Below, in pieces: positions 21,790-50,947 of a stretch of DNA of 64,000 nt. The number at the start of each line of letters is the position of its first letter. Within the stretch, counting starts at the first letter, position 1. Origin of the DNA: Nemertoderma westbladi (Eukaryota > Animalia > Xenacoelomorpha); assembly GCA_032718475.1 (NCBI GenBank), contig JAUCBJ010006610.1, positions 62,001-126,000 of the forward strand, read 5' to 3'. Under the pieces are notes generated by a model. That model had not been told where the DNA came from, did no database searches, and saw only the letters and a list, made by a program, of their open reading frames with translations. The translations under genes were made by a program, and so were the position numbers.

Positions 21790-22400
21790 TAATAACGAAC
21801 CTGTCTTCACACCATAAGGCCGCCAAAGCACAAGATTATGTACAGGCTGGACCTCGCGGGGAAAGCAATGTCCTGCAAAGCGGAGGCGGTCCCGTTAACC
21901 TATCAAGCTCGGGAAAACTAATGAAACACCTCCAATATTGTATAGAGTCTGATTGGATAGGTGTTCATTGTACTTGACGCAATGAACCCGGCGAGGAGTA
22001 CTGGAACTACTGCTTCTCTAAATAATCGGACCTTGAGGTTCGTTCCATTTTATTCTATGGGATTTCCAAATCCCAGGACAAACTATTTAACGCTGCCCAT
22101 GCTTTCCCCTTACCTATCCTAAGTAGCATCATGATCCCAAGTAGCAGAAGTCGTCCACGTGCGCAAACAAGCCGTCCTTAGAGCTTATGCCCTTACGATC
22201 AGACATTTTTTGAGGGCTGTCGAGGTTCATTGTCATAATTTTTTAGGAGTTTACAAAAATACCAACACTAGAAGCAACCTGGTCCAATGAGCAGAGGAGC
22301 TCTTGGGCTCCTCTGATTCTGACAGTACCCCTAAGACATCTGCACTGTCTAAATCAGTAAGGTACTTTGCTGGATTTCTTCTACTGTACTTCTTGTACCA
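21790..22400 (-). mobile_element. Degenerate RTE-type LINE fragment, same family as 31208-31481/50404-50947
   Basis: - strand encodes remnants of RR.PAKYLTDLD.AD, DDFCYLGS, GKAWAALN and FAGHCF.R..QPVHNLVLW.P. Confidence 0.85.
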
Positions 22401-22509
22401 GTAGGGAGTGTTACCATCACCCATAACATTTCACTAATTGCACTAATTGCACTAATTGTGCCGCATCTCCCTACCTGAGGGAGTTTTTAAAATACTTCGG
22501 TTGTACAAT

Positions 22510-25500: not shown

Positions 25501-28335
25501 GTGTGTACGTTAATTGAGACAACAAACAAGCAATGTGTAACACCACAAACAAGCAACTTGTGTACGGTAATTGAAACCATAAACAAGCAACATGTGTACG
25601 TTAATTGAGACAACAAACAAGCAATGTGTAACACCACAAACAAGCAACTTGTGTACGGTAATTGAAACCATAAACAAGCAACATGTGTACGGTAATTGAG
25701 ACCACAAACAAGCAATGTGTAAGAACACAAACAAGCAATGTGTAAGACCACAAACAAGCAACTTGTGTACGGTAATTGAAACCATAAACAAGCAACATGT
25801 GTACGTTAATTGAGACCATAAACAAGCAACATGTGTACGTTAATTGAGACCACACACAAGCAATGTGTAATAACACACACAGGCAACGTGTGTACTTTAA
25901 TTGAGACCACACACAAGCAATGTGTAAGAACACACACAAGCAATGTGTAAGACCACAATCAGGCAACGTGTGTATGGTAATTGAAACCATAAACAAGCAA
26001 CATGTGTACGTTAATTGAGACAACAAACAAGCAATGTGTAACACCACAAACAAGCAACTTGTGTACGGTAATTGAAACCATAAACAAGCAACATGTGTAC
26101 GGTAATTGAGACCACAAACAAGCAACATGTGTACGTTAATTGAGACAACAAACAAGCAATGTGTAACACCACAAACAAGCAACTTGTGTACGGTAATTGA
26201 AACCATAAACAAGCAACATGTGTACGGTAATTGAGACAACAAACAAGCAATGTGTAACACCACAAACAAGCAACTTGTGTACGGTAATTGAAACCATAAA
26301 CAAGCAACATGTGTACGTTAATTGAGACAACAAACAAGCAATGTGTAACACCACAAACAAGCAACTTGTGTACGGTAATTGAAACCATAAACAAGCAACA
26401 TGTGTACGGTAATTGAGACCACAAACAAGCAATGTGTAACACCACAAACAAGCAATGTGTAACACCACAAACAAGCAATGTGTAACACCACAAACAAGCA
26501 ATGTGTAAGACCACAATCAGGCAACGTGTGTATGGTAATTGAAACCATAAACAAGCAACATGTGTACGTTAATTGAGACCACACACAAGCAATGTGTAAG
26601 AACACACACAAGCAGCATGTGTACGGTAATTGAAACCATAAACAAGCAACATGTGTACGGTAATTGAGACCACAAACAAGCAACATGTGTAAGACCACAA
26701 ACAAGCAATGTGTAAGACCACAATCAGGCAACGTGTGTATGGTAATTGAAACCATAAACAAGCAACATGTGTACGTTAATTGAGACCACACACAAGCAAT
26801 GTGTAAGAACACACACAAGCAACATGTGTACGGTAATTGAAACCATAAACAAGCAACATGTGTACGTTAATTGAGACAACAAACAAGCAATGTGTAACAC
26901 CACAAACAAGCAACTTGTGTACGGTAATTGAAACCATAAACAAGCAACATGTGTACGGTAATTGAGACAACAAACAAGCAATGTGTAACACCACAAACAA
27001 GCAACTTGTGTACGGTAATTGAAACCATAAACAAGCAACATGTGTACGGTAATTGAGACAACAAACAAGCAATGTGTAACACCACAAACAAGCAACTTGT
27101 GTACGGTAATTGAAACCATAAACAAGCAACATGTGTACGGTAATTGAGACAACAAACAAGCAATGTGTAACACCACAAACAAGCAACTTGTGTACGGTAA
27201 TTGAAACCATAAACAAGCAACATGTGTACGTTAATTGAGACAACAAACAAGCAATGTGTAACACCACAAACAAGCAACTTGTGTACGGTAATTGAAACCA
27301 TAAACAAGCAACATGTGTACGGTAATTGAGACCACAAACAAGCAATGTGTAACACCACAAACAAGCAATGTGTAACACCACAAACAAGCAATGTGTAACA
27401 CCACAAACAAGCAATGTGTAAGACCACAATCAGGCAACGTGTGTATGGTAATTGAAACCATAAACAAGCAACATGTGTACGTTAATTGAGACAACAAACA
27501 AGCAATGTGTAACACCACAAACAAGCAACATGTGTACGGTAATTGAGACCACAAACAAGCAATGTGTAACACCACAAACAAGCAATGTGTAACACCACAA
27601 ACAAGCAATGTGTAACACCACAAACAAGCAATGTGTAAGACCACAATCAGGCAACGTGTGTATGGTAATTGAAACCATAAACAAGCAACATGTGTACGTT
27701 AATTGAGACAACAAACAAGTAATGTGTAAGACCACAAACATGTATTGTGTGTACGTTAATAGGGACCATAAACAAGCAACATGTGTACGGTAATTGAGAC
27801 AACAAACAAGCAATGTGTAACACCACAAACAAGCAACTTGTGTACGGTAATTGAAACCATAAACAAGCAACATGTGTACGGTAATTGAGACAACAAACAA
27901 GCAATGTGTAACACCACAAACAAGCAACTTGTGTACGGTAATTGAAACCATAAACAAGCAACATGTGTACGTTAATTGAGACAACAAACAAGCAATGTGT
28001 AACACCACAAACAAGCAACTTGTGTACGGTAATTGAAACCATAAACAAGCAACATGTGTACGGTAATTGAGACCACAAACAAGCAATGTGTAACACCACA
28101 AACAAGCAATGTGTAACACCACAAACAAGCAATGTGTAACACCACAAACAAGCAATGTGTAAGACCACAATCAGGCAACGTGTGTATGGTAATTGAAACC
28201 ATAAACAAGCAACATGTGTACGGTAATTGAAACCATAAACAAGCAACATGTGTACGTTAATTGAGACAACAAACAAGTAATGTGTAAGACCACAAACATG
28301 TATTGTGTGTACGTTAATAGGGACCAAAAACAAGC
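22510..28335. repeat. Complex satellite of ~34-bp and ~23-bp related monomers with higher-order units (for example 182 bp)
   Basis: Recurrent AATTGA(G/A)ACCA(C/T)A(A/C)ACAAGCAACATGTGTAC and ACCACAAACAAGCAATGTGTAA. Near-identical spurious ORFs recur at 182-bp offsets (22620, 22802, 22984). Confidence 0.97.
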
Positions 28336-30688: not shown

Positions 30689-31209
30689 AAAAATATCGAG
30701 ACATGAAAAATATCGAGAGTAAAAATAACGCGAGTAAAAATATCGAGTGTTGAAAAATATCGATAATATCGAGAGTTCAAAAAATATCGAGAGTAAAAAT
30801 ATCGAGAGTAAAAATATCGAGAGTAAAAATATCGAGAGTAAAAATATCGAGAGTAAAAATATCGAGAGTAAAAATATCGAGAGTAAAAATATCGAGTGTT
30901 GAAAAATATCGAGAGTAAAAATATCGAGTGTTGAAAAATATCGAGAGTAAAAATATCGAGAGTAAAAATATCGAGTGTTGAAAATTATCGAGAGTAAAAA
31001 TATTGAGAGTAAAAATATCGAGAGTAAAAATATCGAGTGTTGAAAAATATCGAGAGTAAAAATATCGAGTGTTGAAAAATATCGAGAGTAAAAATATTGA
31101 GTGTTGAAAAATATCGAGAGTAAAAATATCGAGTGTTGAAAAATATCGAGAGTAAAAATATCGAGAGTAAAAATATCGAGAGTAAAAATATCGAGAGTAA
31201 AAATATCGA
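30689..31209. repeat. Tandem array of 15-bp AAAAATATCGAGAGT and 17-bp AAAAATATCGAGTGTTG units, possibly subterminal repeats of a truncated DNA transposon
   Basis: About 30 copies seen directly; the array abuts the 5'-truncation point of the LINE at 31208. Confidence 0.9.
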
Positions 31210-31481
31210 TGACTTAGGAGTACTCTCAGAATCACCAGAGGGAGCCCAACGGCTCCTCAGCTCATTAGAACATGCTGCTTCTAGTGTTGGTCTTTATATT
31301 AACTCCAGAAAGACCAAAATTTTGACAGTTAACTTTGAAAGTCCTCAGAAAGTCTCTGATCGGATGAGCATAAGCTCAAAAGATGGTATGCTTGAGCATG
31401 TGGATGACTTCTGTTACCTGGGATCATGGTTCCGGAAGTCAGGTGAGGACCTTCGAATACGTAAGGGAAAGGCATGGGCAG
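31208..31481 (+). mobile_element. RTE-type LINE, 5' half (truncated at the RT DD motif), split by BEL-2
   Basis: DDLGVLSES..AQRLL..LE.AASSVGLYIN.RKT...VDDFCYLGS...DLRIRKGKAWA continues in frame at 50409 once the LTR element and one GGCAG are removed. Confidence 0.92.
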
Positions 31482-32683
31482 TGTACGCGCTTTTGAAGAC
31501 CTTTAGCAGTTTAACCTGCCAAAATTTATATGTCTTTTGGTTTATAAATAGACTTTAGTAAATGACAAGTATTTAATACCAATAAACACAACATTAGCCG
31601 AAGCCAGCCTAGTGCGCGTCCATTCACCCGCTGGATATACCCGGGAGACTGGATTCGGATGGGGCTTAGATTTTATTATTGCAGTGTAAGCTTACTGTAT
31701 TATTCGATTGATCGTTAATAAATAATTTCTGACGAGTATTATTCACTTTCGGGAAATATTAACAGTTCCTTTAGGACGTGGCGCTCTATCTAGGTAAACA
31801 GAGATATGACTTATACTAAACACAACTGTAAGACTGTAAGGCTTATGACTCACGTATGAGGCGCATTCTTTAGGAAATGCTTAGTTATCAGCCACAATCA
31901 TGCACACTACCGGTACCACACAATACTGCACACTAATCTGCCGACCGTCAATGAATTTTATCATACATAAAGAGAACAGCAATTGACTCATGTAGTGCCT
32001 ATCAAATAGCATTAAATTCACTACAAACCACGATAATATAAGTCGCAATCGCTATATGTAACCTGTCTCTCTAACCTGTAGTGTATCAAGAAAATTGGGA
32101 AATTTGGGTTATTTATCGATGTTCTCCAAATAATAATATTCAACCAACTGATACAAATAATGACAACAGTAAAAAGCATTAAGACGGTAGGTTAAGATTA
32201 TAACAATATAAGATTGTACCGCTGCGCTACTGCGCTGATAAGACTGATAACAGTTATACGCTCTATAATCTAAGCCTACTAATGTTTCTTTTAAAGTCTG
32301 AAACAAATTGACTCCAGAGCCGGTGTTCTTGGCCTAGATAGAAACAACAAAACTATAACACAGAAAACTATAAGACTGAACACTCCTAGCACGATCTGTA
32401 GAATATCTCCACATCGACAGTAAAAATCGCTCTGATTGGCTGTTAAGCTGAAACAAAGAACCATGTGTCCAACGGCCATTTCCATGCCAGCAACCAGCTG
32501 TTAGATGTCGTAATCTGAATCATCAAGGCTACACTGTGCTAGAGGATTTGACGCATTGCGGGTTTTGTATCTTGCCATGTCCTCCAAAGCACACATAGAG
32601 AAAAACAACTTTTATGTCCATTAAAACACCCACACGGTATTTTGCGGGCAAGGGGACTGATTATATCCGCAAAAGCTTTTACA
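31482..32683 (-). repeat. 3' LTR of BEL-2 (1202 bp)
   Basis: TGT...ACA direct repeat of 49215-50403 with about 6 substitutions and one 13-bp indel by eye; AATAAA on - strand at 31672-31677. Confidence 0.97.
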
Positions 32684-32761
32684 CCGCTCCCAGAAAATGG
32701 GATTCAAGTCTATAAATATACAAAAATCACAGTTTCTAATATACGTAAATACTCTAAACAG

Positions 32762-34537
32762 TTAGTCTTTCTTGCGCGGACGGCATTTACGCAGTTTTTT
32801 AAAGCTGGCCAGAGTCCTTTTCTCTTTGGGGCGAGCCACTTTACAAGGAGGGCTATAACTCCTGGGTGAAGGGTGCAATATGATTGCATCACAGGGTGTA
32901 GGATTATGGTCGGTGTATCCGCCAGTCGAAGTGCCGGGCTGATTGACATCAACGTCGGGGGAGAGGGGTCTAACGGCCTTGAGAGCGCGTTTTAGGACGG
33001 CCGCTCTTACGGGTCCTTTACGAGTGGTCTGAACGAGAGCCGTGGGTGGACCATAGGCAGTCAGAAACTTCCTGGGTTTAATGGTTCTTTCCAACTCGCG
33101 TTCGCGGGCTCGGTATTCGTAAGGCCGTCGATATACTTCCTGTAACTCGGGGTGTGAGTTAACAAATAAGTCTCCATAGTCCGGATCCTGACGGATAAAA
33201 TTGATCAGGTTATATGAATGAAGGTCGCTAGGATTAACACTCCTGAGAAATTTGCGTACGAACTTGGTTGAAATACATTCTCCGACGCGCTTTAGTAGTT
33301 CGTAACTCGATATGCGTGATTTCTGTTCGACAGAAGCGAATAGGTAAGGATGGAACGCATAAACTCCTTCGTAAGCGCGTCCAGGATAATAGCGATGGCG
33401 CGAATCACAATGTAAATCAGCGTTCGCTTCCCAAGCTCTGATGTAAGGTAGTGTGATTATTTCATCTACGCTTTCCAAATCGTGATTAAAAGGGCAATCG
33501 AAACTGGCGTGTCCCTTTAGTTGACAATGGTGACATTGAGTCATAAATTGAGGGCAAACCGCAAAAATATGCAAGTTATTGAGTCTGCAATATGCGCAAT
33601 AAATTTCCATCGCCGGTTGTTCGTGGAAATAGGAACAGCGGACGTTTGTGTCCATGGGCGTATCATGGTCTCTCGATGCGCACAACCGACAACGTTGCCG
33701 AGAAACATAGTTGGCATGGCGATAATCGTACGCAGTGAGACACTGTGGACCTTGATACCATTCTAGGATGTAATCGTTGTCGCTGTTCCGGGGCGCGATA
33801 GGCTGAATCTCCTCAGATTCTAGGCATATTGGTTCGTCTTCCCAGTGCATAGCTGAGGTGGGCGTGTCTGTCTCTTCAAGTGGACCTATTGTCTGAATTT
33901 CCACGACCGAATAACCTGTGGGGATTCGAGGTCTTTGTATAACAGAGGAGTGCAAGTTCGATATACAAATCTCTTTGAAAATGGCAAATCCAGCGCTATC
34001 TAACTTCTCTGCAGCTGAGTTTCTTAGGCTGAGCTTGGTCAAAGCGCGGTCTTTAAATTGGCTATCCACGTTGCGGAACGGGGTTAAAAATCGCCGGAAA
34101 CATTCGAAGCGGATGAATTTATTATGTTCATCTAGCTTAGTGAGTTTGGTCCCAAGTATTAATGGATGGGCGCGTATAGTACGACTGCACACATCGGCTA
34201 GCCAACCGGAAAGTGCGGTGTTTTCAAAGATCGTGTAGATAGCTAAGGAGGGACGGAGTGGAACACTCATGAAGCTATACACGGCGCCAGTTGCGGTCAA
34301 TGGTCCATCAAAGTATAATCGAGAATAATGGTCTCCGTATACTTGTTGATAGTTGATGGGATTTCCGACTTTGAAATTCCATCCGTATTCCTGAAAGGCA
34401 AGATGTCCGATGGAAGTTCGTTGCACCTTTGTAATGTTGCTAGACGTATTAGCATACATGGTGCGGAAGAAACCTCGACCTTCTGCCCAGGGAGCAATCA
34501 GCTGAGTATCAACGAAAGGGTATGGAATGTTCTCCAT
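32762..34537 (-). CDS. Accessory ORF of BEL-2: 591-aa protein with three CCHC-type zinc fingers and a basic C-terminus, function unknown
   Basis: Uninterrupted ORF, same strand as pol, ending ~80 bp before the 3' LTR. Motifs CRLCASRDH(x9)C, CAYCRLNNLHIFAVC and CHHCQLKGHASFDC; K/R-rich tail; no evident signal peptide or TM helix. Confidence 0.85.
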   Translation of the reverse strand: MENIPYPFVDTQLIAPWAEGRGFFRTMYANTSSNITKVQRTSIGHLAFQEYGWNFKVGNPINYQQVYGDHYSRLYFDGPLTATGAVYSFMSVPLRPSLAIYTIFENTALSGWLADVCSRTIRAHPLILGTKLTKLDEHNKFIRFECFRRFLTPFRNVDSQFKDRALTKLSLRNSAAEKLDSAGFAIFKEICISNLHSSVIQRPRIPTGYSVVEIQTIGPLEETDTPTSAMHWEDEPICLESEEIQPIAPRNSDNDYILEWYQGPQCLTAYDYRHANYVSRQRCRLCASRDHDTPMDTNVRCSYFHEQPAMEIYCAYCRLNNLHIFAVCPQFMTQCHHCQLKGHASFDCPFNHDLESVDEIITLPYIRAWEANADLHCDSRHRYYPGRAYEGVYAFHPYLFASVEQKSRISSYELLKRVGECISTKFVRKFLRSVNPSDLHSYNLINFIRQDPDYGDLFVNSHPELQEVYRRPYEYRARERELERTIKPRKFLTAYGPPTALVQTTRKGPVRAAVLKRALKAVRPLSPDVDVNQPGTSTGGYTDHNPTPCDAIILHPSPRSYSPPCKVARPKEKRTLASFKKLRKCRPRKKD

Positions 34538-35429
34538 ATTCCCGTCGTATGCCTAATATGTCTTCCATTGATGGTAGTGGTAGAGAGCAGGGGAAGACCT
34601 ATGTCGTATTCAGAAATATTCAGAAATACGATCTCAGTTCTCAGTTGGAGGATTCAAACGTTCGAAGACTATCTCCAAATGAATTTATCCCTAGTGCGAG
34701 GAGGTAAACACCAGTTCAAGGATATGTTTGTCTCAGTTGTTCTACATAAGATTTATAACTCCAATCATTGAGGGAGGTGAACAACCAGATTTATGACACA
34801 TAATGGTACCAGTTGTTCACAAACTATCCGCGTGTCCTTTCAGTCCTTGTTTGTATCACGGTTGTGGACTTAAGGAAATTATTGACGGTTGATTTTCTAA
34901 TCAACAACGAGAGGGTGGAAGTTGATATCATAAATATCAACAGAATGTGACATGGACAAGAGGTGCGGACACCAATATGAGCATCCAGATTAACAGTAAG
35001 GGATGGGAGGTTTAGTAAGAGGCGGTATGATCAATACCACGATACGGCAATGATTGGTCGATCGTCTCCCAAAGCTCCGAGCGCGTTGGGAAGAGAAGGT
35101 GGGACGAAGTATGTTGTATTTTCAATAGCGATGTATAGAGGGATAAAGGGAGTAAAGAGGAGGGAGGATATATGGTAGTATCCATAAGATACCACAATGG
35201 ACATGTTTCTGTCACATCATCATTCATTCTTGCCCTTTAATTGTGACACTGATCACAATAATTACAGGAAAACGATGAAGGAAGAGAAAATTACAGCCTC
35301 CCGAAGGAGACCGCCCGCGAGCACCCGTGCCCCGGGGAAAAACTATTCACATCATGGACCCTGGACATTAACCCATGTCTCTTCTCCAGTGTTCTCCTCT
35401 ATTTGTCTTTACAAGCTTTCTTCCACATT

Positions 35430-35807
35430 CTATCTTTCGAGTTGTTTTCGAATAGAATTCTCGTGTTCCATTCTCGGTTCATCATGCCGACTCCGCTGGG
35501 TATGATATTTAAATAGAACCTTTTCCCTTTTGGTGTCTACATCGTCCATATCATGTAAATCGATAGGATGGCCGGTAGTTAGGAAGTCCATATACGTACC
35601 ATTACGATTCGTATAGCGAGCGGTGAATTTTCGATAGTCCAATTCACGCGTAAGTCGCTCTTGGGACATCGGCGGTTCGATATAACGACCATCGTCCTCC
35701 GTAATGGTTGGATCGGCTTCACCGCGTATTAAGCTATCCACAAATGCTTGTAAAGGTAGAGTATATCGCTCCCTAATACCAAGATCATCTTCTATCAACT
35801 CCGTCAT
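35430..35807 (-). CDS. Second accessory ORF of BEL-2, 125 aa, hydrophilic and charged, function unknown
   Basis: ATG-initiated ORF with coding-like composition between pol and the 591-aa ORF, preceded by AG acceptor-like sites (CTCAG/ATAGCAG/ATATG). Confidence 0.6.
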   Translation of the reverse strand: MTELIEDDLGIRERYTLPLQAFVDSLIRGEADPTITEDDGRYIEPPMSQERLTRELDYRKFTARYTNRNGTYMDFLTTGHPIDLHDMDDVDTKREKVLFKYHTQRSRHDEPRMEHENSIRKQLER

Positions 35808-38800
35808 ATCTGCTATCTGAGTTTATTAATATCAAAATGAGTTTATGTTTAGGCTAGCGGGCGTCGCTGCCTACCTCTCGTTGCCCCCGGACAGTGGGAT
35901 TCTCAGCGCCGATGTACCGTCGTCGCGGTGTTTACGCCAACATGTAGCAACAGCACGACAACGATAACCGGCACAAGTCACTCCACTGTCCGTCCCAAAG
36001 GCTTGGATCCACTCTAGGTTCTTTCTATAGGAGAGTTGGGTTACTTTCACAATTGCGACTAGCTACTGTAAACATACTTTAGCAGTAACATTCACCTATA
36101 AATGCATAAATTCCACACAACTGTCACCAATTGTACACATACAGGCCATTTGTCCGTTAGTCAGTGCCTTCCAGAATGTCACGTTATTACTGTGTATCCT
36201 TGGATACTAACAGTGTGCTATGTATTCTCTATGCTATGCAATGGGACAAGCTTTCTATTGTTCTTTTAACTTGCTTCTAATTCTAGCGTGGGTGTTGCTA
36301 TGGTGACATTATGGAAAGCTAGCGGTAGAATTAGGGTAATTCTCATGCATACAGATCTGGAATGCTATTTAATAGTAATTCTTTAATTGTCAATATCCTC
36401 TCTATGCATGATTTTATTAATTTTTATCGGCTATTGACTATATGTTGGAGATTCTCGCACTCTAATATACTCAAGAGGATGAATCTCCGCTCCCATGATC
36501 TATTAATTAATGGAATTTTGGGAATGTTATAAATTGCACAAAATGACAATTTATGAAATTCATTTAAAATATGAATTTAAATTTATTCCCGTGAATTTTA
36601 TTATTTGATGTTAAAATTGACACAATTTTTATTCCAGAGCATGTCTGGGGACTTTAACCACTGATTCTAGAATTTGTCTTTCAAGTATATCGGTGGGTGC
36701 CGCGATATCTTAATCGACTAGAATTACAGATGGTCAAAAGGTTTAACAGATTTATTTGCGTTTTACGCTACTGTTATAGGGACATCACGCTACTATATGT
36801 ATTATTATATATGGTATGAGAGCAATATCGCACGAAGCAATGTCAGTGTGAAGAGGCAAGTCGTTTTCAAGGTCTACCCAGAGCTTGGTTTAGCCGAGAC
36901 ACGAGGATCTGAACTTTGCATTCCTAATACTCTGCCTACCAATAATACTTGAATATAGTAGTGGCTTTATTGTACTTTAATAAGTACGGACATTTCATCT
37001 TACTGTAGTCACGTATTTATAATATGATACGGACAGTAAGGAAAGAGAAAAAATTATTTCTCGCCGTCACACTAAATATATATTATATATATGTAATTAC
37101 GTAATAAACACTAATATATTGCACTAATCTACCAAATAATCTAAAATAACCTTCTACTAAATAAAATTGAATAAAAACGATTATAATAAAGTACATAATA
37201 ATGTTCACATATAAAATATAATAAAATAGATAAAATAATATAGTCATGCACCCACTCCAGACGTATCACGTTGGGGAGTCCCTAGATGTTTGAGGAATTA
37301 GGGAGGTGGTCGTGGGAAGAGTGTCTTGCCTTCCATAGTTTCCGGAGAGTTCTCTGTCTCTTTCCAGTAAACATAAACGACCAACTGGGCGGTTGAGTTG
37401 TTGCGTCTCAAAGATTATGCCTGGCTTCTTGAAGTTACGCCGCATGACGACGAGTTCTACCGAGCGTACTAAACCATCATCCGAGATGTGAGTCTCGATG
37501 ATACGACCTGTCTGCCACCGTTTACGTGGGAGGTCTGAATCTACAATAAGCACCATATCTCCGGCGCTGACGTTTTCTTGCTGCGCAAACCACTTAGTTC
37601 GAAGTTGTAGCGTGGGCAGATAATGTTTCTCGAAATGGTCAGCGAAACGACGGGATAGCAACTGCATAAGTTGCCAAGTTCGACGGCAGTATTCGTCTCC
37701 GTCGGTAATCTCCGATCGTGGGAGCATGGCTTAAGGTTTATTCAGTAGGAAGTGCGCGGGTGTTAGCGCTTCCAGGGAATCGGGACTCGATGAGACTGGC
37801 ATAAGCGGTCTCTCGTTGAGATAGGCAGCTATTTCCTCCATTAACGTCCGCAAAAGTTCGTCGGTGAGATACGCGCGGCATGGCACTATAAAGTGAAATG
37901 CGGTTTTGACACTTCTAATTAATCTCTCCCAACTTCCTCCCCACCAAGGGGCGTCGGCGGCGTTGAAGGTCCAGCTAGACGCTGTTATCCTTAGCTGATC
38001 GTCCACCTGTCTTTGGTTCCAGTCCTTCACGTAAGCCTGGATTTCGTTGTTGGCACCAATGAAGTTCGTTCCCTTATCCGATCTCATGGTATTACTAGTC
38101 CCGAAGCGAGCGATCTGTCGGCGTAAACTTAAGACGAAGCTGTTGGTAGATAGATCGTTCACCATTATCGAGATGGATGGCTCTACAAGTCATGCATACG
38201 AAGATGACACACCATCTCTTGACTATAGTCCTAGCACGATATACTTCAATAGGGCCAAATAAATCTACACCAGTATTAGTAAAAGGTGGTTCATAGAAGC
38301 TTACTCGTTCCCTAGGTAATTCTGCCTCTCGCTGTGTTAAAGGCCTACTGAATGCTTTCCTACAGGGTATGCAGTTCCTAAGAACTTGGTTCAGAGCTCT
38401 ACGGGGTTTATAAAAATAATAGCGAGTTCGGATTTCGCTAAGAACTCGTTCTCTACCAGCATGATAAAGTTTGCTGTGAACATCTACAATCATCTTGATT
38501 TGTACTTCAAGATTTCTAATGAGTATGGGGAATTTAGTGTCAAAGGATAATGGCGCATTGGTGAGCCTTCCTCCAACACGTATTAACCCATCTATCATTG
38601 TGCTAGAGAAGCGATCCCTTAAGCGCATCTGCGGATTTCTCAACAACAGGAAATACTTATCGGAATCTTCATAGCATTGCAGGAGTCTCAGTATCTGCTT
38701 ATTGGTTTCTTCGTGCTCCTGGTAACTGATTTTCTCCTTTAGAAACCGGTCAGATGTCTTATATTTGGGTAAATTTTTAATAACATGAACTTGCGCAGAT

Positions 38801-39993
38801 GTCAATGGAGCGGTATCACTAATTGTCTTCGTCCTGGAGTAGTGATGATGAAAACATCGCCTTAAATATATGACGGCTTTACAGAGCCGATTCCAGGAAC
38901 TGTAGTGAAGCATTGCTCTCTGCAGCAGGGGTGAGATTCCTTGCGAGACGTCTGGTATTCCAGATTTCCAATCTCTGTCTCTAATTTCCATGACAGACTT
39001 ATTTGTGGCGAGGGATTGTGGATCCGAAGCATCGTTTCCGGAAGTATGTAATACAGATAGATCGATCGTCGGTTTAAATAACTTCGATTTACTCGCCCGG
39101 GTTTTAGGTTTGACTTTCTCCGCTCCCTTGGCTTGTCTAATCTCCGCCGTAGTAAGGTGAGGAGGCCATTCATCCTCTTCCTTACTCAGGAAGTCGGGTC
39201 CACCCAACCAGTCTGGAGTATCTATCAGTTCCTGTGGGGTTGCTCCCCTGGAGGCGATATCAGCTGGATTAATCGTACCAGGGCAATGTCTCCATTGATC
39301 TATCTTTGTGCGACTAAGAATAATAGCTACCCTGTTAGTAACAAAAACGCTGAACTGACAGACTTCATTGGTTATATACTCCAACACGAGTAAAGCGTCG
39401 GTCCAATAAACAGTTTTCTCCAGCGGATAGTCGATTTGTTCTGTTACGTTCCGGCCGATGGCTGTAGCGTATAAAGCCGCTTTTAACTCCGCTCGAGGAA
39501 CCTTTAACTTGTTGTTAATCAATGCCTTAGAGGTAACCAAGGCGACTTTGATTCCATCCGGAGTTTCGACTCGCAGATATGCTACTATACCTATTCCCAT
39601 GTCGCTGGCGTCTCCAAACACATGGAGTTGATAGGAATATGTAGGAAGAACATGACCAAAATATGCACGGGAAATTACAAAGCTCTCGATGGCAGGTAGA
39701 GAATCTTCCCATTTCATCCACTTCTTTAACAGTTCTCCCTTAAGTGGATCGTCCCAGGAGTGGTTTTCAAGCCACATTTGTTGTACTAAACTCCGAGCAA
39801 TCAATATAACTGGGCTAATAAATCCCAATGGGTCGAAATAAGTGCTCAGGATACTTAAACAAATCTGTTTGGTCCGAACTGGATTATCTCGCTGTTTTAG
39901 CTGAAAAAACAGGATATCTCTTTCAGTGTCCCACTTCAAGCCAAGCGTCTTGGTTTCTGGAAGATATTCCTTTATTAAGTCTAGGTCGTTCGT

Positions 39994-41562
39994 TCTTCTA
40001 TTCGTTCTCTCATTATTTAAATACTGTTATCATTAAGTTACAGTCAGCCAGTTAGAGCCCTATTAACTACTTATTTGCGTTGTTGAGAGCTTTAACCATT
40101 AAAACTCTTTTTTAAATATTTTAAGATTTTAATTTAATTCGCCTTAACTTAAATAAATAAATATTTTTAATAATAATAAAAATACTACGGTACTTTAAAA
40201 TGGAATTTGTTCTGTTATATTAGGTGTATTATGTATTTTTGTGTACTATGTATTTTTTTTTTTTTTTTATTATATGATGAATATGATTGATACTAGGTGA
40301 ATACTGAATAATACCACGGTATTTTGATTAGAGAGATTAATACTAGGGTATTTTGATACGGTATTTTGATTAGAGGTGAACACTAGACAATACTACGGTA
40401 TTTTGATTTTGATTAGAGAGATTAATACTAGGCTATTTTGATACGGTATTTTGATTAGATGTGAACACTAGACAATACTACGGTATTTTGATTAGTGGTA
40501 AATATAATTAATGCTACAGTATTTTGAATAGAGGTGAACACTAGACAATACTACGGTATTTTGATTAGTGGTGAATATAATTAATGCTACAGTTTTTTGA
40601 ATAGAGGTGAACACTAGACAATACTACGGTATTTTGATTAGTGGTGAATATAATTAATGCTACAGTATTTTGAATAGAGGTGAACACTAGACAATACTAC
40701 GGTATTTTGATTAGTGGTGAATATAATTAATGCTACAGTATTTTGAATAGAGGTGAACACTAGACAATACTACGGTATTTTGATTAGTGGTGAATATAAT
40801 TAATGCTACAGTATTTTGAATAGAGGTGAACACTAGACAATACTACGGTATTTTGATTAGTGGTGAATATAATTAATGCTACAGTATTTTGAATAGAGGT
40901 GAACACTAGACAATACTACGGTATTTTGATTAGTGGTGAATATAATTAATGCTACAGTATTTTGAATAGAGGTGAACACTAGACAATACTACGGTATTTT
41001 GATTAGTGGTGAATATAATTAATGCTACAGTATTTTGAATAGATGTGAACATTAAATAATACTACGTCGTGGTTGTCTAACATCATATAATTATGTATTT
41101 TGATTAGACAGAGGTGAATATGATTACCACAGTATTTTGCTTAGAGATGAATATAAGTAATACTACAGTATTTTGTTTAGAGGTGAACATGATTAATACT
41201 GTACTACAGTATATTGAATAGTGATCAATACTACGGCGATTAATACCAAATACCAGTATATTTCAACCGTATGTTATTATTTCGTCCAATTAATTTGCAT
41301 ATTACTGTATTATGACACTGTATATATTTTCATGTTTTATTTTATCCATATGTAATTTTAAACGATTTTAAATTTAAGCTGCATAAATCATTTTAAGAGG
41401 GGACCTGCATGGAAACGAGTTCTATGAACTCATGCAGTTATCCCCGTCAGAACATTTTATTAGATAACCTTTAACATATAAATGTATATTATGTATATGT
41501 TCTTATGTATATGTATTTCTGTGTATTTCATGCGTTTCTGACAATAAACAACTTCAACTTCA
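39994..41562 (+). mobile_element. Non-coding retroposed insertion with a LINE-like 3' end interrupting the BEL-2 RT
   Basis: Removing it restores ...PVEDRS-TNDLDL.... It ends in AATAAAC(AACTTC)n after a stem-loop-like 3' UTR (CTGCATG...CATGCAG). No ORF; ends are approximate because of microhomology. Confidence 0.8.
40370..41065. repeat. 73-bp minisatellite (two related ~36-bp halves), about 8-9 copies
   Basis: Unit GAGGTGAACACTAGACAATACTACGGTATTTTGATTAGTGGTGAATATAATTAATGCTACAGTATTTTGAATA; starts at 40531 and 40604. Confidence 0.95.
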
Positions 41563-44500
41563 ACTTCGGTCTTCTACCGGTATCGCTTCCAGAAACTCAC
41601 GGGAGTTGCTGGTGAATTTCGTCAGTCGAAATCCACCTCTTTTCAAACACTCTACCGTTCCTTTCGCGACATCAATGGCTTCTTCTACTGATGGAAGGGA
41701 CTTTAAATTGTCGTCCATGTATATATCGCGCTTGATGTTATCTATCACCTCTTTGGAGAAGGCGTCTCGGTTGTCATTCGCAGTGGTCCGCACCACGGAG
41801 CAGGCGTTGGAAGGGCTTGATATGATCCCAAAAGCCTGGATGGTCATCCAGTACTCTACCGGTTTCTGGTTGAGATCTCCTTCAGGCCACCACAGAAATC
41901 TTAGGCTGTCTCTATCTCTATCCAGCGCCTTGACTTGTAAGAACATTCCTTCTATATCGGAGGCGAACGCGATGGAATATTGTCTTAATCTTAAAAGTAT
42001 TCCCAACAAAGATTGGAGTAAGTTGGGTCCTGGTAACAACTCGGAATTGAGGGATTGGCCCATATATAGAGCGGAGCCATCGAATACAACTCGTACTTCA
42101 TGGGGTTTACCGGGTTTGGGAACGTAATGATGTGTTAAGTAATACGTTCTCTCAGTTACTGGTGTTCCTTCCGGTACTCGCTCCGCGTATCCTTTTGTAA
42201 TAAATTTCTTCAACTTAGTTTGGTACATTTCTTTAGCTGAAGCATTAGCCGTAAGGCATCGATGTAATTGAGTGATTCTTTTCTCTGCCAAGGGTCTGTT
42301 ATTTATAAATCTAGGTTCCTGTTTTCGAAATGGTAGGCCGATTTCATATCTACCTTGATCTTTTAAAAAACGTGTAGTTGTTTCCTGGATTTGCTTGGCT
42401 CTTTCTTCTTCTATCGATAGGGCCTTATCGTATGAATTGGGCTCTACCAATTCTTGAGTAAAGAATCGTATGGCGAGTTCGTCCCGAGTTCTAGCGTTGT
42501 AGCGCTCTATCTCATCATTTAGTTCGTCATTGTAATCAATGGGTCCCGATGGGCGAATCAGTTGACATAGGTTCACCTGGTTTTTCCAAGTTTTGTTTTC
42601 TGTAATTAGGTCGATTGTGTCTTCTTCATCGAAGAGTTGGTAGATGTCGTCATTATCTGAGGAGTATGGTGTTCCCTCAGTTAGTTCGTCCACCTCACTG
42701 CTCTCCACTTCCCAATCATTTACTTGGTATATTCTTTCTTGTGGTAGTCTCTCTTTGAGAGTTCTGCGGGAAGGGCCAGTAAAGTACCAACCTACTCTAG
42801 TTCTTACCGCATAGGTTTGTAGTGGCTGCGGTTGAGCAGGCCATTTCTCCAATGTCTCGAGCGCCTCATGCGCGTTTTGGCCGATGAGTATTTGTACTCC
42901 AGGATAATCTGTCTGGAATCGAGGTATCTTAAGCTGTTGGATGCTCTCGTCCTCGTCCCAGTTATAAGGTTCTACTTGGGTAGTAGCGAAGTTCTTTATA
43001 GCCACCATTTTTACTGACCTTATACTTTGTGCTCCTGATTTATCCTGGGGGGTGGACAACGCACCTACATAGTAATCTGCCATTATGGTAGATTTCCAAA
43101 CCTGCATAATTCCGGACATATTCAACTTAGTTTGGAATTTGGGTTGTCCAGCAAAGATATCTTCGGCTAGTTCTTGATCGATGAATGTTCCTGTGCTGCC
43201 GGAGTCAAGGAGGGCGTTCACTATGTAACTTTTGTTAGGACCGTGAACTCTTACCTGCACTACAGGAAATTCTCTGATTCCTATGTTGGAAGTTGGAGCT
43301 TTCCAAGATGGTTGTCTGTCAAAGGTAGTTGGGGGGAACTCATTGTCGGTGTCCTTTTCATAAGTAAGTGCTCGATACACCGCGGTATTTATTAGGTAAC
43401 AGGATTCGTTGGCGTCGGAGAATTCGTCAGTATAGAATCCTTCCATCTCAGACTCTTGATCAGTGTCATTTACATCACTGAATTGGACATGTAGTTCGGG
43501 CTCACTTACCTGACTCGGGTTGTTTCGTTCGAACTCACTGTGTAACAAGATGTGATGTTTCGCGCCGCACTTTGCACACTTTACGTCTGAGTAACAGGTT
43601 CGCCGTTGGTGTCCTGATCTGAGGCAATTATAGCATAACTGCTTATCCCACATGACTTCACGTCTGTCTACAAGGGATTTCTTTAGGAATTCAGCACACG
43701 CACTCAAACGGTGGGGCCTGTCGCACAGCGCACAGTTTGGTTTGATGTTACTCACTTTACCCTGGGTAACTTGATGCACTCTCGTTCTTTCTTCGGGCTT
43801 TCTTCGGTGCATTCTGTTAGGAGACTGAGGAGGAGTCTTGGCAACCTGTTCTCTCCTATCGTTGGTTCGAGCCTTGTATTTACTTACGTCTTTGGAGGTT
43901 TTGTTAACGTAGTAAAATTTGTCAGTGTCTTTTCCGCTGTCCTCTTCTTGAGAAGCTTGGCTTTCGCCATCGTCAGTGTAACACACTGGTGTTACTCTTC
44001 TCCTAGAAACGGGTTTCTCACTTACCTTATTTTCCGATGTTTTCTCTCTGGACTGCTTTATGAGTTGTAGTTTTACTTCACCATCTAAGAAGGACATGAG
44101 ATCAGCCATGGTAGGGCCTCGTTGTTGCTGCTCATTCATATACAACACTTTCTTATCCCAGCGTGTACATACTCCACCCATGACCATGGAACTCTGATAT
44201 TCATGAGACTTACCTAACCAGTCCAATTGTCTACAGATCTCTTGAATCTCATCGGAAAACTCTATAATCCCGCTACTAAGGAAGTTTCGGGGGGCTACTA
44301 ATTTTGCATACAAATACTTAATTATGTTATCCTTGTTACCATACCTGATGTTTAATGTGTCCCAAACTTGTCTTAATCCATCTGGATGTCCAATAAACTT
44401 TAACGCCATTAACTTGGGAGGTCCTTCCAAGCACTTGATGAGGAATCTAAGTTTCTCTCCGTTAGATAGTACAGAGTTCTGTATGCTATCTTTGTAATAT

Positions 44501-47500
44501 TCATTGAAAGGTAACCATTTCATCTCATCTCTATTGAATTTGACGATCTCTCCCACTTTGACCGCTTGGCGGGCTTCTGTTCTAGCCATCTGACGCGTGA
44601 AGCTTTCTTGGGCCATCGTGTTATTTAATATCGAATTATCGGTATATGAATTTCTCGGATTATTATCAGGTCTATATGGAATATCATTAACAACAGGTTT
44701 ATAATCACCCTTAATAGGGTTTGCTATAGGAGTTTCTACTTCACTAGCAGTATAGATGCGTGTAGGCTCCACACCTTGCGCATGTAATACTTCAGACCTA
44801 ACAGGTTGACACAATGTTACTGGGGGTATTGGTATACCCCTTTGTATATTGACTAATTTGTCGCGTTCTAGCGCGATGCTTTGCTGCACTTCTTGCAATT
44901 CTGCCCTACTTTCCCTTACTGTTCCCTTAAGTTGGTGGACAGTCTCCTGCATCTGTCCGAGCAGGAGATTCATCCCTCGCCGTCCCTCCTCTACCCACTC
45001 GACCGCCGAAGCGGGAGTCGCCAACATTGTAGCGGGCCGATGCGGGACGACGGGAGACAAATCTTTGATTTCTCTCTCAGCTTCCAGGACCTGGATATTC
45101 TCATGGACTGTTCTACCGGGTACAGGCAGTGTAGTACTGTGTAAAGGGAATTTAGAGTTAAGCTCTGGAAGTACAGGGGTCTCTAGCACAGGAGTGGCTT
45201 TGGGAACGACAGGCCTAATTATTTCAGGCTCATCAACTATTGTAGGGAGTCTTTTGACCTGAATAATTTGGTCTGTGGGTTCTGTACTACCTAAGTCTGT
45301 GCTAGCTAGTTGTCTTCTAACCGCTGGGGGCAAATCAGGCAATTTGTGACGGTGAGATGTTTTTCTACGCCTGCTTAGACAAGATCTATTTCCTCCGCCT
45401 TCAGGATCGGTGGTCTCGCCTTCCTCCAATGATGTGTATCCCTGGCGTTTGGGAGTAGATCGTCTCATCATCTGCATTTGACTAGCAGTTAACTGTTTAT
45501 TTATGTTGTCTTGCGTCTCTTGCAGATTTTCCAACTCCAGTTGGGTAGTCTCCTCAGACGCTCTCCATTCTGCTTCTGCCACTGCCTTTGCTGCCTTTCT
45601 TTCTGCTTCTGCTTCTGCCGCCGCTGCCTTTGCTGCCTTTCTTTCTGCTTCTACTTCTGCCATTGCCGCTGTTACTGCTGCTGCCTTTCGGTCCTCTATC
45701 CGTTTTTTCTTTACTTATTCTTCTTGGACTCTAGCGAGGCGGAGTTTTTCATCAAATTTAGCTTGGTTTGCAGCTAACATTTCCGCATCGATTGAGTCCA
45801 ACACAAGCTTGGCTCCTTCACTATTGGGGCGAAGTCCAGCCAGTCGTCTCCTCAACTCTTCATCACCTAAGAAGCGTTGATAGTCTGACAGATAGATGTC
45901 GATGGCGTCTCGCGTTCGCGGTCTCTCTGCTGTCCCTTCGCTTTCCACTTGAGAAAGGGTGGCATCGGTTGGTTCCTCATAGGTTGGTCTCTCAGCCAGC
46001 TGGGATTTCCACTGGGCCGTTTCTTGTACTTTGAGACCTACCCGCTGGAACCAAGTCTTGACAGCAACCTGCGGCGACGTGTCCTGTCTTCTTTTGGAAG
46101 TTTCCTCAAAGGCTGATAGGATTAGTCTAATGCGTAGGGTTCTTTCGCGTACTTGATATAGCAGCTCTTCCTGCTCTTGAGGTCCTTGGGGTTGTCGAAA
46201 CAGTTGTTCTTCTAATCGCTCTAAGGAGCCGAAGAATCCCTGCACATATCCTGCTGCTGACCTCTTCCAAACAGCTGGATCCATCGTATCTTTAGTCACT
46301 CCCATCCTGTGTATGTCTTCCCAAGTAGCTTCGGACAAATCTAACGGGAGTCCGGGTCCGGGAAAGTTCCATTGTGACTCGACAATAGACATCAATTCTT
46401 CCCTGGCGTATCCCGCATAACTATCTTGGGTCGCTCGCTTACTTCTCGCCCAATCGACTTGGTGTTCCTCCACCGCAATCAATATAGTAGTTAGTACTGC
46501 GGCAGGAAGGGTGAGAAGGGGATCCGAGTAGGCCGTAGCCGCCATCTTCACTCCGCGTTCGGGGGTCAGCTCTACGGTATCCAAACTACTGGAGCTATCG
46601 GGTTGCTGGGAACGAGTTTCTTGACTAGGATGTTGCTGCTGTTGGACAGCTGCTTCTTGGTTCCGTTTGACCTGGGCCCGAGTGCCGATGATAGACCTAC
46701 GGTGTTGGATTAGCCTAGGGTCTGATACTACTACTAGAGGGATGACCTTTCTTTCAGTAGGAGGTGAGCTGAACCCCTTTCTTAATTGCTCCACACTCCT
46801 ATCTGTGTCACAGATGGTTGTATCGATTAGACTGTCTGACAGGTTTTGCTGGGTGTCAGACATGTTTATCTATACAGTTGAATGCTTACTGCTATAGTTA
46901 CAGTTAAAGCAAGTCTAGTAATTCAGTATGACCGTTGGCCTAGTACCGGTAATTTATTACAGTATATTAGAATACCGGTATACACTTATAATATATATAA
47001 GTATTGTAAACTAGGTTTGTCTCAGAATACCGGTATATAATTTTAACACAAATATATATAAATATACAATAGGCCTATCGTGAATACCGGTATACAGCCT
47101 ACACTTATAGTATATAAGTATAATTCTGGACTAGAATTAATTACAGAATACCGGTATAATTTCAGCCTAAATTTATAGAAATAAAGATAATAGGCCTATC
47201 GTAAATACCGGTATATCAATTATTTAAATAATTGAATTTCTGAATTTTAAAGGTTACTTAGTTACTTTAACTTACTTTATTACCGTTATTTAAGCAGTAG
47301 TCCAACTGATATTGAGACCTAGTTGTTGTATGGCAGGCCTACTATTTATAAATCGTTTGAGTTGATTTATAATATATATATACCCGTTTAAAATGGGTTT
47401 TGTCAATATTTGAAATAAATGTTATTATTTCTGGGGGAGTCACTACACAGAAGCAGTGCGCTCTCAGTGAAGTGCTACTTATTGGACACTAAAACAGATA

Positions 47501-48204
47501 ATTCTAATTTACCTAAGTTACTTAATACTACAAATTACGTACGATACGGGTGAGATTAATTCTCTAATTAAAACACAACAAAATATTACGTATGAAATTT
47601 TAGGGTAATTTTACAGGGAAACTACAAACCAGTCTAACAAAGGGTTAGAACTTCTGGTTATTACAACAGACAGGATACTACGGTATTTGAAAATAATAAG
47701 TAGTAGTAAATATGTTGCGCTGTCCAGATAGGAAAATACCACCGTCTGACGACCTATAGCCGTATCGCTATAGGTACTACGTTATGTATCACGGAGTGTT
47801 CCTACCTAGAAGTTAATTACCGCGGACTACCAGATCCAACGTGCCTATTAACCACTTTACAACACAATACACTGCCTACACACTAATTACTTTCGGAAAG
47901 CACTGTACACCAAACCCTAAATTAGGTACAAGTACTTATTAAAAACAGATAACTAGCAGTTAAATATACTTGAACAGTTAAAAGAACCACGGCATCTGCT
48001 GGAGTGACCGGAGCACAAAGTCACCAGTCTTTACCTACGCCAAGCAGCCCGTGTAGTACCGGGGTTAATTTAACTATAACGGTATGTGTAACAAGCACAA
48101 TTACTGTAGGAATAAACTTGGGGACATGAATGTTGCGAATAATCGCATAAACTCTGAATAATAAATATTACGCTACCCGTACAGAATACTCAAACAAAAT
48201 ACAA

Positions 48205-48735
48205 ACCAAACGCTGGCAGACTACCATCAAGCCTAAATAAACTACAGTATGTGCAGATTCCGAAATGGTTAGTTAGTATGCGTTCTAACACGGTAGTACG
48301 ACTTATTCTTTAGGAGGGGATTGACCTTACAGCTCTGGCTGCCCCAACTTACTAACTGGCACTTTATCAGACAAACTCTACACACGCAGCAATCTCTTCA
48401 GACCTAATAATAGCTAGACAACAATCCAGCCTACAAAATATCTGAGTAATAACTATTACGGTACCTGAACAGACCACACAAACAAACATAGGCTAAAACG
48501 CTGGCAGACTACTATCGAGCCTAAATAAACTACAGTATATGCAGATTCCAAAATGGTTAGTTAGTATGCGTTCTAACACGGTAGTACGACTTATTCTTTA
48601 GGAGGGGGTTGACCTTACAGCTCTGGCTGCCCCAACTTACTAACTGGCACTTTATCGGACATACACTCTACATGCACTGCAATCCGTTCAGACCTAACAA
48701 CAGTCAGAACAACAGTCCAGCCTACAAATTATCTG
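48205..48735. repeat. Tandem duplication of about 290 bp in the BEL-2 leader
   Basis: AAACGCTGGCAGACTAC...CCAGCCTACAAA occurs twice (about 48208-48438 and 48496-48729); BEL-1 has one copy near 10150-10385. Confidence 0.85.
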
Positions 48736-48911
48736 TACAATCTGAGCAGGGTTACACGCCTTCTGCTCAATATTAACTTACACGTAAATAAAACTGACAG
48801 AAATAAGTAAACTATACAAAAGAATGACGGGTGATCAATCCCTATTCTCCTGACAGCCTACAATATACAATAGATCTCAATCGAAATAATACTAATGTAC
48901 TTATACTGGAA

Positions 48912-49152
48912 GTACCGGTTAGGACAGTTGGGCCTACAGACCTACAGCAGTACCGGTTCAGGCAGTTAGGCCTACGGACCTACAGCAGTACCGGTTCAGG
49001 CAGTTAGGCCTACGGACCTACAGCAGTACCGATTCTGGCAGTTGGGCCTACGGACCTACAGCAGTACCGATTCTGGCAGTTGGGCCTACGGACCTACAGC
49101 AGTACCGGTTCAAGCAGTTGGGCCTACGGACCTACAGCAGTACCGGTTCAGG
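48912..49152. repeat. 38-bp tandem repeat (about 6 copies) in the BEL-2 leader just inside the 5' LTR
   Basis: GGCAGTT(A/G)GGCCTACGGACCTACAGCAGTACCGGTTCA at 48961, 48999 and onward. Confidence 0.95.
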
Positions 49153-49201
49153 TTTACCGGTCGACCGGTACTTTCAACTTTATTGCTTACTGCAATAAAG
49201 A

Positions 49202-49214
49202 GTATAACTGTTAT
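49202..49214 (-). promoter_or_regulatory. Candidate self-priming primer-binding site of BEL-2 (ATAACAGTTATAC)
   Basis: Abuts the 5' LTR, lacks TGG, and is an exact 13-nt complement of the LTR-internal sense sequence at 32247-32259. Confidence 0.65.
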
Positions 49215-50403
49215 TGTACGCGCTTTTGAAGACCTTTAGCAGTTTAACCCGCCAAAATTTATATGTCTTTTGGTTTATAAATAGACTTTAGTAAATGACA
49301 AGTATTTAATACCAATAAACACAACATTAGCCGAAGCCAGCCTAGTGCGCATCCATTCACCCGCTGGATATACCCGGGAGACTGGATTCGGATGGGGCTT
49401 AGATTTTATTATTGCAGTGTAAGCTTACTGTATTATTCGATTGATCGTTAATAAATAATTTCTGACGAGTATTATTCACTTTCGGGAAATATTAACAGTT
49501 CCTTTAGGACGTGGCGCTCTATCTAGGTAAACAGAGATATGACTTATACTAAACACAACTGTAAGACTGTAAGGCTTATGACTCACGTATGAGGCGCATT
49601 CTTTAGGAAATGCTTAGTTATCAGCCACAATCATGCACACTACCGGTACCACACAATACTGCACACTAATCTGCCGACCGTCAATGAATTTTATCATACA
49701 TAAAGAGAACAGCAATTGACTCATGTAGTGCCTATCAAATAGCATTAAATTCACTACAAACCACGATAATATAAGTCGCAATCGCTATATGTAACCTGTC
49801 TCTATAACCTGTAGTGTATCAAGAAAATTGGGAAATTTGGGTTATTTATCGATGTTCTCCAAATAATAATATTCAACCAACTGATACAAATAATGACAAC
49901 AGTAAAAAGCATTAAGACGGTAGGTTAAGATTATAACAATATAAGATTGTACCGCTGCGCTACTGCGCTGATATTATACGCTCTATAATCTAAGCCTACT
50001 AATGTTTCTTCTAAAGTCTGAAACAAATTGACTCCAGAGCCGGTGTTCTTGGCCTAGATAGAAACAACAAAACTATAACACAGAAAACTATAAGACTGAA
50101 CACTCCTAGCACGATCTGTAGAATATCTCCACATCGACAGTAAAAATCGCTCTGATTGGCTGTTAAGCTGAAACAAAGAACCATGTGTCCAACGGCCGTT
50201 TCCATGCCAGCAACCAGCTGTTAGATGTCGTAATCTGAATCATCAAGGCTACACTGTGCTAGAGGATTTGACGCATTGCGGGTTTTGTATCTTGCCATGT
50301 CCTCCAAAGCACACATAGAGAAAAACAACTTTTATGTCCGTTAAAACACCCACACGGTATTTTGCGGGCAAGGGGACTGATTATATCCGCAAAAGCTTTT
50401 ACA
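49215..50403 (-). repeat. 5' LTR of BEL-2 (1189 bp)
   Basis: Direct repeat of 31482-32683 lacking AGACTGATAACAG after 49973. Confidence 0.97.
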
Positions 50404-50947
50404 GGCAGCCTTGAATAGGCTTTCCAGGATTTGGAAGTCACCAAGAATTAATCGGACACTTAAGGTCCGATTATTTAGAGCAGCAGTAGTTCCAGTACTC
50501 CTCTATGGGAGTCCATGCTGGGCTCTAACTGCTGAGGACACCAAATCTCTGGATGGCACATTCACAAGAATGCTACACTGGGTTCATTGTGTCAAGTACA
50601 ATGCACATATCTCCAACCAGACACTATATAACATTGGAGATGTCTCATTGGTTCCCCCAAGCTTGACACTAGAACAAAATCGCCTCTGCTTTGCAGGACA
50701 TTGCTTTCGCCGTGAGGACCAGCCAGTGCATAATCTTGTACTTTGGCAGCCTCATGGAGTGAATAAGCATGGTGGACAGCCCATGACTTTCTTGAGACGC
50801 ATCTTAAAGGACACTGGCCTTGAAGATGCGGATGATCTAGCAAATGTCATGGGTGATAGGGAGTTGTGGCGGTGCAATTTTGTCGATAAGCCAGCACAGC
50901 ATTCTTAAAAATGCAGCTGCAATGCAGCATGCCGATCCTAGTAGTAT
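50404..50947 (+). mobile_element. RTE-type LINE, 3' half
   Basis: LNRLSRIWKS...LKVRLFRAAVVPVLLYG..W.LT...LDGTFTRML...RLCFAGHCFR...LVLWQP...DRELWR; stop at 50908, very short UTR and a (TAG)n-like tail. Confidence 0.92.

Follow-up and report, generated by a model that had tools for sequence, protein, structure and literature searches.

The 64,000-nucleotide (nt) stretch of the Nemertoderma westbladi (Xenacoelomorpha) genome analyzed here (GCA_032718475.1, contig JAUCBJ010006610.1, positions 62,001 to 126,000 of the forward strand; hereafter, the window) harbors a long terminal repeat (LTR) retrotransposon, element A (50403-31482, minus strand), in which the sequence following the 5′ LTR lacks the features of a tRNA-type primer-binding site (PBS) and is complementary to the element's own LTR, an arrangement that recurs in related elements and points to a self-supplied primer for reverse transcription. 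All parts of element A lie on the minus strand unless stated otherwise. The element is delimited by a 1189-bp 5′ LTR with TG...CA ends (49215-50403) and a 1202-bp 3′ LTR (31482-32683), is flanked by a target-site duplication of 5 bp (50408-50404 and 31481-31477), and carries a short polypurine tract adjoining the 3′ LTR (32684-32703). Its Pfam domains, DUF1759 (E value, 1.6e-11), Peptidase_A17 (5.9e-36), Integrase_H2C2 (2.3e-7), and DUF5641 (8.3e-22), follow the BEL/Pao order, and its translation contains the DSG motif of the protease (PR) and the YMDD motif of the reverse transcriptase (RT). With the PR-RT-RNase H (RH)-integrase (IN) order of its proteins, its LTRs, the target-site duplication, and the polypurine tract, element A belongs to the BEL/Pao superfamily, and the domain order bears out the assignment made in the initial annotation of this DNA.

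Element A is a young but broken copy. The insertion is young, as 6 substitutions and a single 13-nt indel (13 gap columns) separate the two LTRs over 1189 positions. The element spans 18.9 kb, an insertion of about 1.5 kb included. Its leader contains 38-bp tandem repeats (family D7; 48873-49176) and is followed by the N-terminal part of gag (45715-46869), up to an in-frame stop that is not common to element B, a second BEL copy in the window. The next portion (41560-45714) encodes the DUF1759 part of gag, the protease with its DSG motif, and the N-terminal half of the RT with YMDD. The RT is split by the insertion (40011-41578, strand unassigned), within which lies a 73-bp tandem array (40366-41168). 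The RH region (Peptidase_A17), the integrase zinc finger, the integrase core, and DUF5641 follow (37266-40026), with two lesions in the integrase part, a stop at 37731-37733 and, near 38100-38190, a change of frame. An extra 3′ open reading frame (ORF) of 596 codons from stop to stop (32762-34552) is intact despite the broken gag and pol and contains three Cys/His clusters resembling zinc knuckles; Pfam, a word search, and a search of 1.84 billion representatives turned up no homologue of this ORF.

Directly after the 5′ LTR, the PBS position of element A (49202-49214, offset 0 from the LTR end) shows no TGG of the tRNA type. The 13 nt at this position are the exact complement of a segment at LTR position 425-437, the predicted self-primer, which is present in the 3′ LTR only (32247-32259, minus strand) and occurs nowhere else in the window. 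Both observations had been made in the initial annotation and hold, as does the location of the segment upstream of an AATAAA at 31677-31672 in the 3′ LTR. When the sequence was shuffled, a Watson-Crick helix of 13 bp starting from the first post-LTR base arose anywhere in the LTR in 1 of 3000 shuffles (16 of 3000 with G-U pairs allowed); the duplex with the 3′ LTR gains 6 further pairs past a bulge to reach -20.6 kcal/mol, a value attained by 0 of 1000 shuffles. The complementarity thus exceeds chance. The caution, raised at the outset, that the site is quasi-palindromic holds in part: neither the 11-mer nor the 13-mer has a fold of its own, but in its 11-nt core the site also matches the LTR segment directly, at 10 of 11 positions. 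A search for primers made by splicing in A and in B returned nothing that beat the contiguous match. A 9-bp hairpin directly follows the primer site of A (49178-49200, minus strand; z score, -3.96; 0 of 200 shuffles); the equivalent in element B (10605-10625) is weak (z score, -1.36). In both elements, an AATAAA lies in the 3′ arm of this hairpin, just past the primer site and outside the LTR.

Element B, also on the minus strand, shares about 70% DNA identity and 78% RT amino acid identity with A. Its 5′ LTR (10678-13112) is split by a miniature inverted-repeat transposable element (MITE) of 1.25 kb with long terminal inverted repeats and internal 49- to 55-bp repeats (11354-12603). The primer-site position of B (10652-10677) likewise begins at offset 0 and lacks TGG, with a sequence unlike that of A. 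It pairs with a segment at LTR position 457-466 (12647-12656) over 10 bp, including one G-U, plus 7 bp past a loop; the segment is preceded by a CA step and falls in a zone homologous to that of A, where such a 10-bp pairing was found in 14 of 3000 shuffles, which gives it positional support. The site of A, when anchored at its first base, forms only 4 bp with that half of B's LTR. An LTR motif common to A and B gave 0 matches in metagenomes. The MITE sits about 45 nt after the predicted primer of B and has a target duplication of about 10 bp, as judged by eye. Further insertions are nested in the B leader (8489-9361 and 6982-10469), including an ORF of 290 codons without a Pfam hit and short C-rich inverted repeat arrays at the boundaries.

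With the protease-RT region of A as the query, 29 loci with 32 to 54% identity were retrieved from metagenome contigs. For 18 of these, no 5′ LTR start could be identified; the LTR starts of the other 11 were scanned, and 8 loci in six families were scorable. The starts scanned for L001, L009, and L019 turned out to belong to 3′ LTRs, which are not followed by a primer site (nulls, 100, 51, and 54 of 100). The null in each case was the best result over all 11 to 34 candidate LTR ends in 100 shuffles. A signal was obtained for 7 of the 11 starts; L011 escaped detection when the donor filter was strict (null, 84 of 100) but was recovered on reanalysis. All six evaluable families contained an own-LTR complement of 11 to 15 nt. 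In four of them the complement is contiguous and starts 3 to 4 nt past the LTR end (L003, 12 nt; L007, 11 nt; L008, 11 nt; L015, 15 nt; nulls, 0, 3, 1, and 0 of 100, respectively). In the other two it forms only across the splice junction of a GT-AG intron in the LTR: L004 pairs over 11 nt when spliced and 5 nt when unspliced, and L010 pairs over 14 nt and 10 nt, respectively (nulls, 2 and 0 of 100). Pairing at an exon-exon junction within the LTR was located at L004:847-1218, L010:1729-2311, and L011:2711-3083. In every family the segment lies 35 to 50% into the LTR, and a TGG was absent from the first 8 nt after the LTR in all 10 LTR/post-LTR sets. Loss of the complementarity in most relatives, which the initial annotation had named as a reason to give up self-priming, was not seen: it is kept in six of the six evaluable outside families. 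Protein scans over viral and prokaryote contigs yielded nothing confirmed.

The check on covariation between PBS and LTR that had been suggested at the start came out largely in favor of cognate pairing: in a Watson-Crick cross-pairing matrix, each site was best matched by its own LTR in 7 of 9 rows, but B was tied, and three rows tie when G-U pairs are admitted. These results make it likely, as judged from the sequences, that family-specific complements at the LTR end replace the tRNA site in A, B, and the six outside families. In a quick, midpoint-rooted RT tree, built with no named reference elements (Sailor/Sinbad, Suzu, Dan, Tas, Flow, BEL, or Pao clades) and with 5 loci excluded for short matches, A and B sit on a long branch within a 42-row group (Shimodaira-Hasegawa-like approximate likelihood ratio test [SH-aLRT] support, 94) that also holds all treed loci and proteins of fish and bivalves; the insect-named rows fall apart from this group.

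Copy A itself no longer has the arrangement in its 5′ LTR. Compared with the 3′ LTR, 13 nt are missing between 49975 and 49974, across the predicted primer 3′ end; the indel, which the initial annotation had overlooked, takes the last 7 bases of the segment and the next 6. In that zone the 5′ LTR forms no duplex better than -11.4 kcal/mol, a value matched by 185 of 1000 shuffles, and the best complement of this LTR is 8 nt, short of the at least 10 nt asked of self-primers. Since the indel removes the segment end, a transcription start at about 49979, where the initial annotation had placed it, cannot give this primer in copy A; and self-priming as claimed does not hold for this copy, given that the segment is absent from its 5′ LTR and that its genes are broken. 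Copy A itself could not prime in this way from its own 5′ LTR, the segment having probably been lost after insertion.

Read data bear on the age of this deletion. In the contigs of three DNA runs, X1 to X3 (X1 and X2 represent one sample), the element A family is very abundant and variable. From the bin before the indel to the indel bin, the summed depth, which is not copy number, drops from 201,530 to 21,345 in X1, from 261,059 to 29,665 in X2, and from 81,520 to 11,448 in X3, that is, about 7- to 9-fold. Moreover, 19 X2 contigs depart from the 5′ LTR of A at 49974, just as the 3′ LTR does. For X5, a run presumed to be RNA, contigs alone were obtained and depth was nil at 49981-50041; a look-up for the LTR listed no raw RNA reads. 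These data suggest that the deletion form of the 5′ LTR is a minority in the reads and that the deletion is private to copy A and arose after its insertion. In one X3 contig (depth, 8226), the first 11 post-LTR nt of A are kept and the sequence differs thereafter; 11 nt is the length of the Tf1 primer, so this contig was counted in favor of Tf1-type priming. The hairpin in the same contig is changed yet still pairable, as judged by eye.

The proposal of the initial annotation that this BEL lineage primes itself thus finds support at the level of the lineage, but not in copy A, whose 5′ LTR lacks the segment. For the lineage, a primer derived by any route from the element's own LTR RNA is probable, given the pattern of complementarity across families. 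By analogy with Tf1 of Schizosaccharomyces pombe, we lean somewhat toward a route in which the front of the transcript serves as the primer after an RNase H cut. Transcription would start at LTR segment 425-437 or a few bases ahead of it, the first 11 to 13 nt of the transcript would fold back to pair with the site that follows the 5′ LTR, and cleavage by the element's RNase H after these paired nucleotides would leave a 3′-OH, as in Tf1. The primer would be copied into the site in every cycle, and site and segment would consequently stay in step. Several sequence details fit such a start and cut. In 6 of the 8 families, a CA step lies no more than 2 nt from the segment 5′ end (P, ∼0.006, post hoc, with four of the families related), and in 7 of the 8 the base right after the predicted cut is a C. 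Exon 1 of L010 contributes only 4 paired nt, which end in a CA step, as would be expected at a transcript start.

In addition to the deletion in copy A, a number of observations weigh against self-priming by this route. The outside loci were all fetched with the A protein and are to that extent a biased set, with no tRNA-primed BEL element among them as a control. Independent confirmation of the LTR end was obtained for the L004 family only, from the 3′ LTR of L006, and within that family the 11th pair is broken in L005 and one G-U is required in L011. The geometry is uneven, the outside complements being offset by 3 to 4 nt and starting with GT and those of A and B having offset 0 and starting with AT. 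The distance from the LTR segment to the primer site in A, about 765 nt, is far longer than in the other families, and A is one of the two families of eight without a CA initiator near the segment 5′ end. A TATA-like run at 32295, found in the 3′ LTR of A only, would point to a start at about 32265. With G-U pairs allowed, a foreign LTR ties the 13 nt of A and the 12 nt of L003. The complement of element B is, on its own, statistically weak: 10 bp is reached somewhere in its LTR by 228 of 3000 shuffles, 77 of 1000 shuffles equal its duplex energy, a stronger duplex exists at LTR position ∼250, and noncognate LTRs tie or exceed its own pairing.

The alternative that survives best, unlikely as it appears, places the segment at the very end of the unique 3′ region (U3), with transcription beginning just after it and the primer cut from the 3′-LTR copy, either in cis or from a copackaged RNA. 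An initiator-consensus hexamer at 32247-32242, which begins at the last base of the segment, would put the segment in U3 and so also tells against a start at the segment itself; copy A retains the segment in its 3′ LTR only, as this arrangement would have it, and a CA occurs near the segment 3′ end in A, L015, and L004. However, this hexamer occurs 3 times in the A LTR, B has no initiator motif after its segment, and it is the 5′ end of the segment that is enriched for CA (6/8), not the 3′ end (3/8; P, 0.36). The four pairing nucleotides of L010 exon 1, ending at a CA step, are also what a transcript start would be expected to show, and removal of the 3′ repeat region (R) would, by the established mechanism, abolish the acceptor for first-strand transfer.

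Rather improbable, too, is that the pairing is structural, a fold of the 5′ leader or between the 5′ and 3′ ends with a role in packaging, translation control, or strand transfer, the true primer being a different one that binds elsewhere. The separate conserved hairpin after the site and the continuation of the A and B pairing past bulges would suit such a fold. Against it, the complement begins 0 to 4 nt from the LTR end in all eight families, where the 3′ end of a primer must sit, and no family has a TGG at that position.

We consider it more doubtful still that the primer is a host RNA, such as a tRNA half, an internal tRNA fragment, a PIWI-interacting RNA, or another small RNA, of which the LTR segment would be a captured or chance copy. 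Precedent exists in the half-tRNA priming described for Ty1/copia lineages (excerpts of PMC6317226) and in the tRNA priming given for the family by the International Committee on Taxonomy of Viruses (ICTV; PMC8742986). Nevertheless, no two of the eight families have the same site, each site finds its best or joint-best match in its own LTR, two families match only the splice junction of their own LTR, and the window contains no tRNA gene and no Rfam match.

That the match in A arose fortuitously or through the local duplication of a quasi-palindrome, and has no function, seems very unlikely. The AT-rich, near-palindromic core, the absence of the segment from the 5′ LTR of A, and the weakness of the B match when taken alone would all be in keeping with chance, but the shuffles for A (1/3000 and 0/1000) and the recurrence of the same arrangement, with nonpalindromic sites, in six of six outside families are not. 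Least credible of all is a primer formed by the polyadenylated 3′ end of the transcript itself, cut at the segment end: retention of the segment in the 3′ LTR of A alone would agree with it, but neither AATAAA nor ATTAAA occurs 5 to 45 nt ahead of the segment 3′ end in any of the eight families, and in 5 of the 8 families as scanned a poly(A) signal lies within the LTR, downstream of the segment, as one does in the other LTR half of B.

A splice-donor-like site was noted at a homologous LTR position in A (32075, 3′ LTR) and in B (11213). An intron in the long LTRs of A and B, of which the sequence gives a hint, would shorten the loop between primer and site.

Element A is itself inserted in another abundant repeat (50404-50763 and 31241-31481), for which many contigs show an empty site, and the target recurs in inverted orientation at 21806-22311. 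The remainder of the window contains satellite arrays with 23-, 34-, and 57-bp units and 15- and 17-bp units (22500-28300 and 30689-31311), an integrase (rve) fragment near 267-bp direct repeats (14967-16653), an ORF with a sulfotransferase domain (17182-18264), and a long inverted repeat with arms of 207 and 126 nt that are 95 to 97% identical (13736-14421), probably another MITE.

The closest known parallels are Tf1 and Tf2 of S. pombe, Tj1 of Schizosaccharomyces japonicus, and the Tf1/sushi chromoviruses of the Ty3/gypsy superfamily, which, like the lineage of A, lack a tRNA site and have a short PBS complementary to their own LTR. In Tf1, the transcript's initial 11 bases pair with the PBS, and RNase H cuts between bases 11 and 12 (excerpts of PMC7175516 and PMC4600332). 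The Tf1 PBS and the site of A start with the same five bases, and about 50% of the Tf1 cDNA carries a reverse-transcribed full-length PBS (excerpts of PMC11042837); this copy, if derived from the primer, would offer a route by which site and segment could change together. The differences are that A is by its domains a BEL/Pao element and not a chromovirus and thus falls outside the sushi group; that its LTR is 1.2 kb long, with the segment some 765 nt from the site; that for A the start site and the cut are predictions; and that two of its relatives need splicing to form the complement. To the extent that sequence can tell, the A lineage would work like Tf1 self-priming without being a Tf1/sushi element. 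Cer7 of Caenorhabditis elegans is said to encode its own tRNA-like primer; this would represent another type of self-supplied primer.

The TAR lineage of Ty1/copia (Houba and Osr-1) and the Tcn1 chromoviruses belong, unlike A, to other superfamilies and to plant hosts. Self-priming in these groups was predicted from sequence by a complement of at least 10 bp starting 0 to 5 bp past the 5′ LTR (excerpts of PMC6317226); a complement of this length exists in A only by way of the 3′ LTR (13 nt), in B if one G-U pair is counted (10 nt), and in six of the six outside families. The ICTV profile of Belpaoviridae (Semotivirus) describes an 18-nt PBS for tRNA-Arg or tRNA-Gly, a genome of 4.2 to 10 kb, and replication that is tRNA primed and poorly understood (PMC8742986). 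Element A shares with this family the LTRs, the gag-PR-RT-RH-IN order, the BEL-type Pfam families, and the short polypurine tract, but it has no 18-nt tRNA PBS, is 18.9 kb long, and carries the extra 3′ ORF without homologues; it is classed as BEL/Pao by its proteins and is not a typical semotivirus. No report of BEL/Pao self-priming was found in the literature searched; most subscription papers, GyDB, and Repbase, which may list such sites, lie outside that literature. A search by terms in the accessible portions of the BEL/Pao papers PMC3118150, PMC554778, PMC6238403, PMC8556966, and PMC8220671 returned no PBS description, and the corresponding portions of PMC3601003, PMC5443660, PMC5445492, and PMC3286476 mention self-priming or atypical sites only in groups other than BEL/Pao.

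The broadest reading of these data, for and against which we find the case evenly balanced, is that a large branch of BEL/Pao elements of aquatic animals has given up tRNA priming entirely and takes its primers from the front of its own RNA, in some families only after splicing of the LTR. If so, some of these families would have converged on the start of the Tf1 primer site, and splicing of the LTR would act as a switch for reverse transcription. If self-priming holds for the lineage of A, it would exist in all three LTR superfamilies, having been shown for Tf1 and predicted for some gypsy and copia lineages, which would bear on whether hairpin priming is ancestral or evolved repeatedly, a question raised in the accessible part of PMC3601003. 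We further infer that such elements would likely escape control by 3′ tRNA fragments and that annotation tools requiring a tRNA PBS would miss or misscore them.

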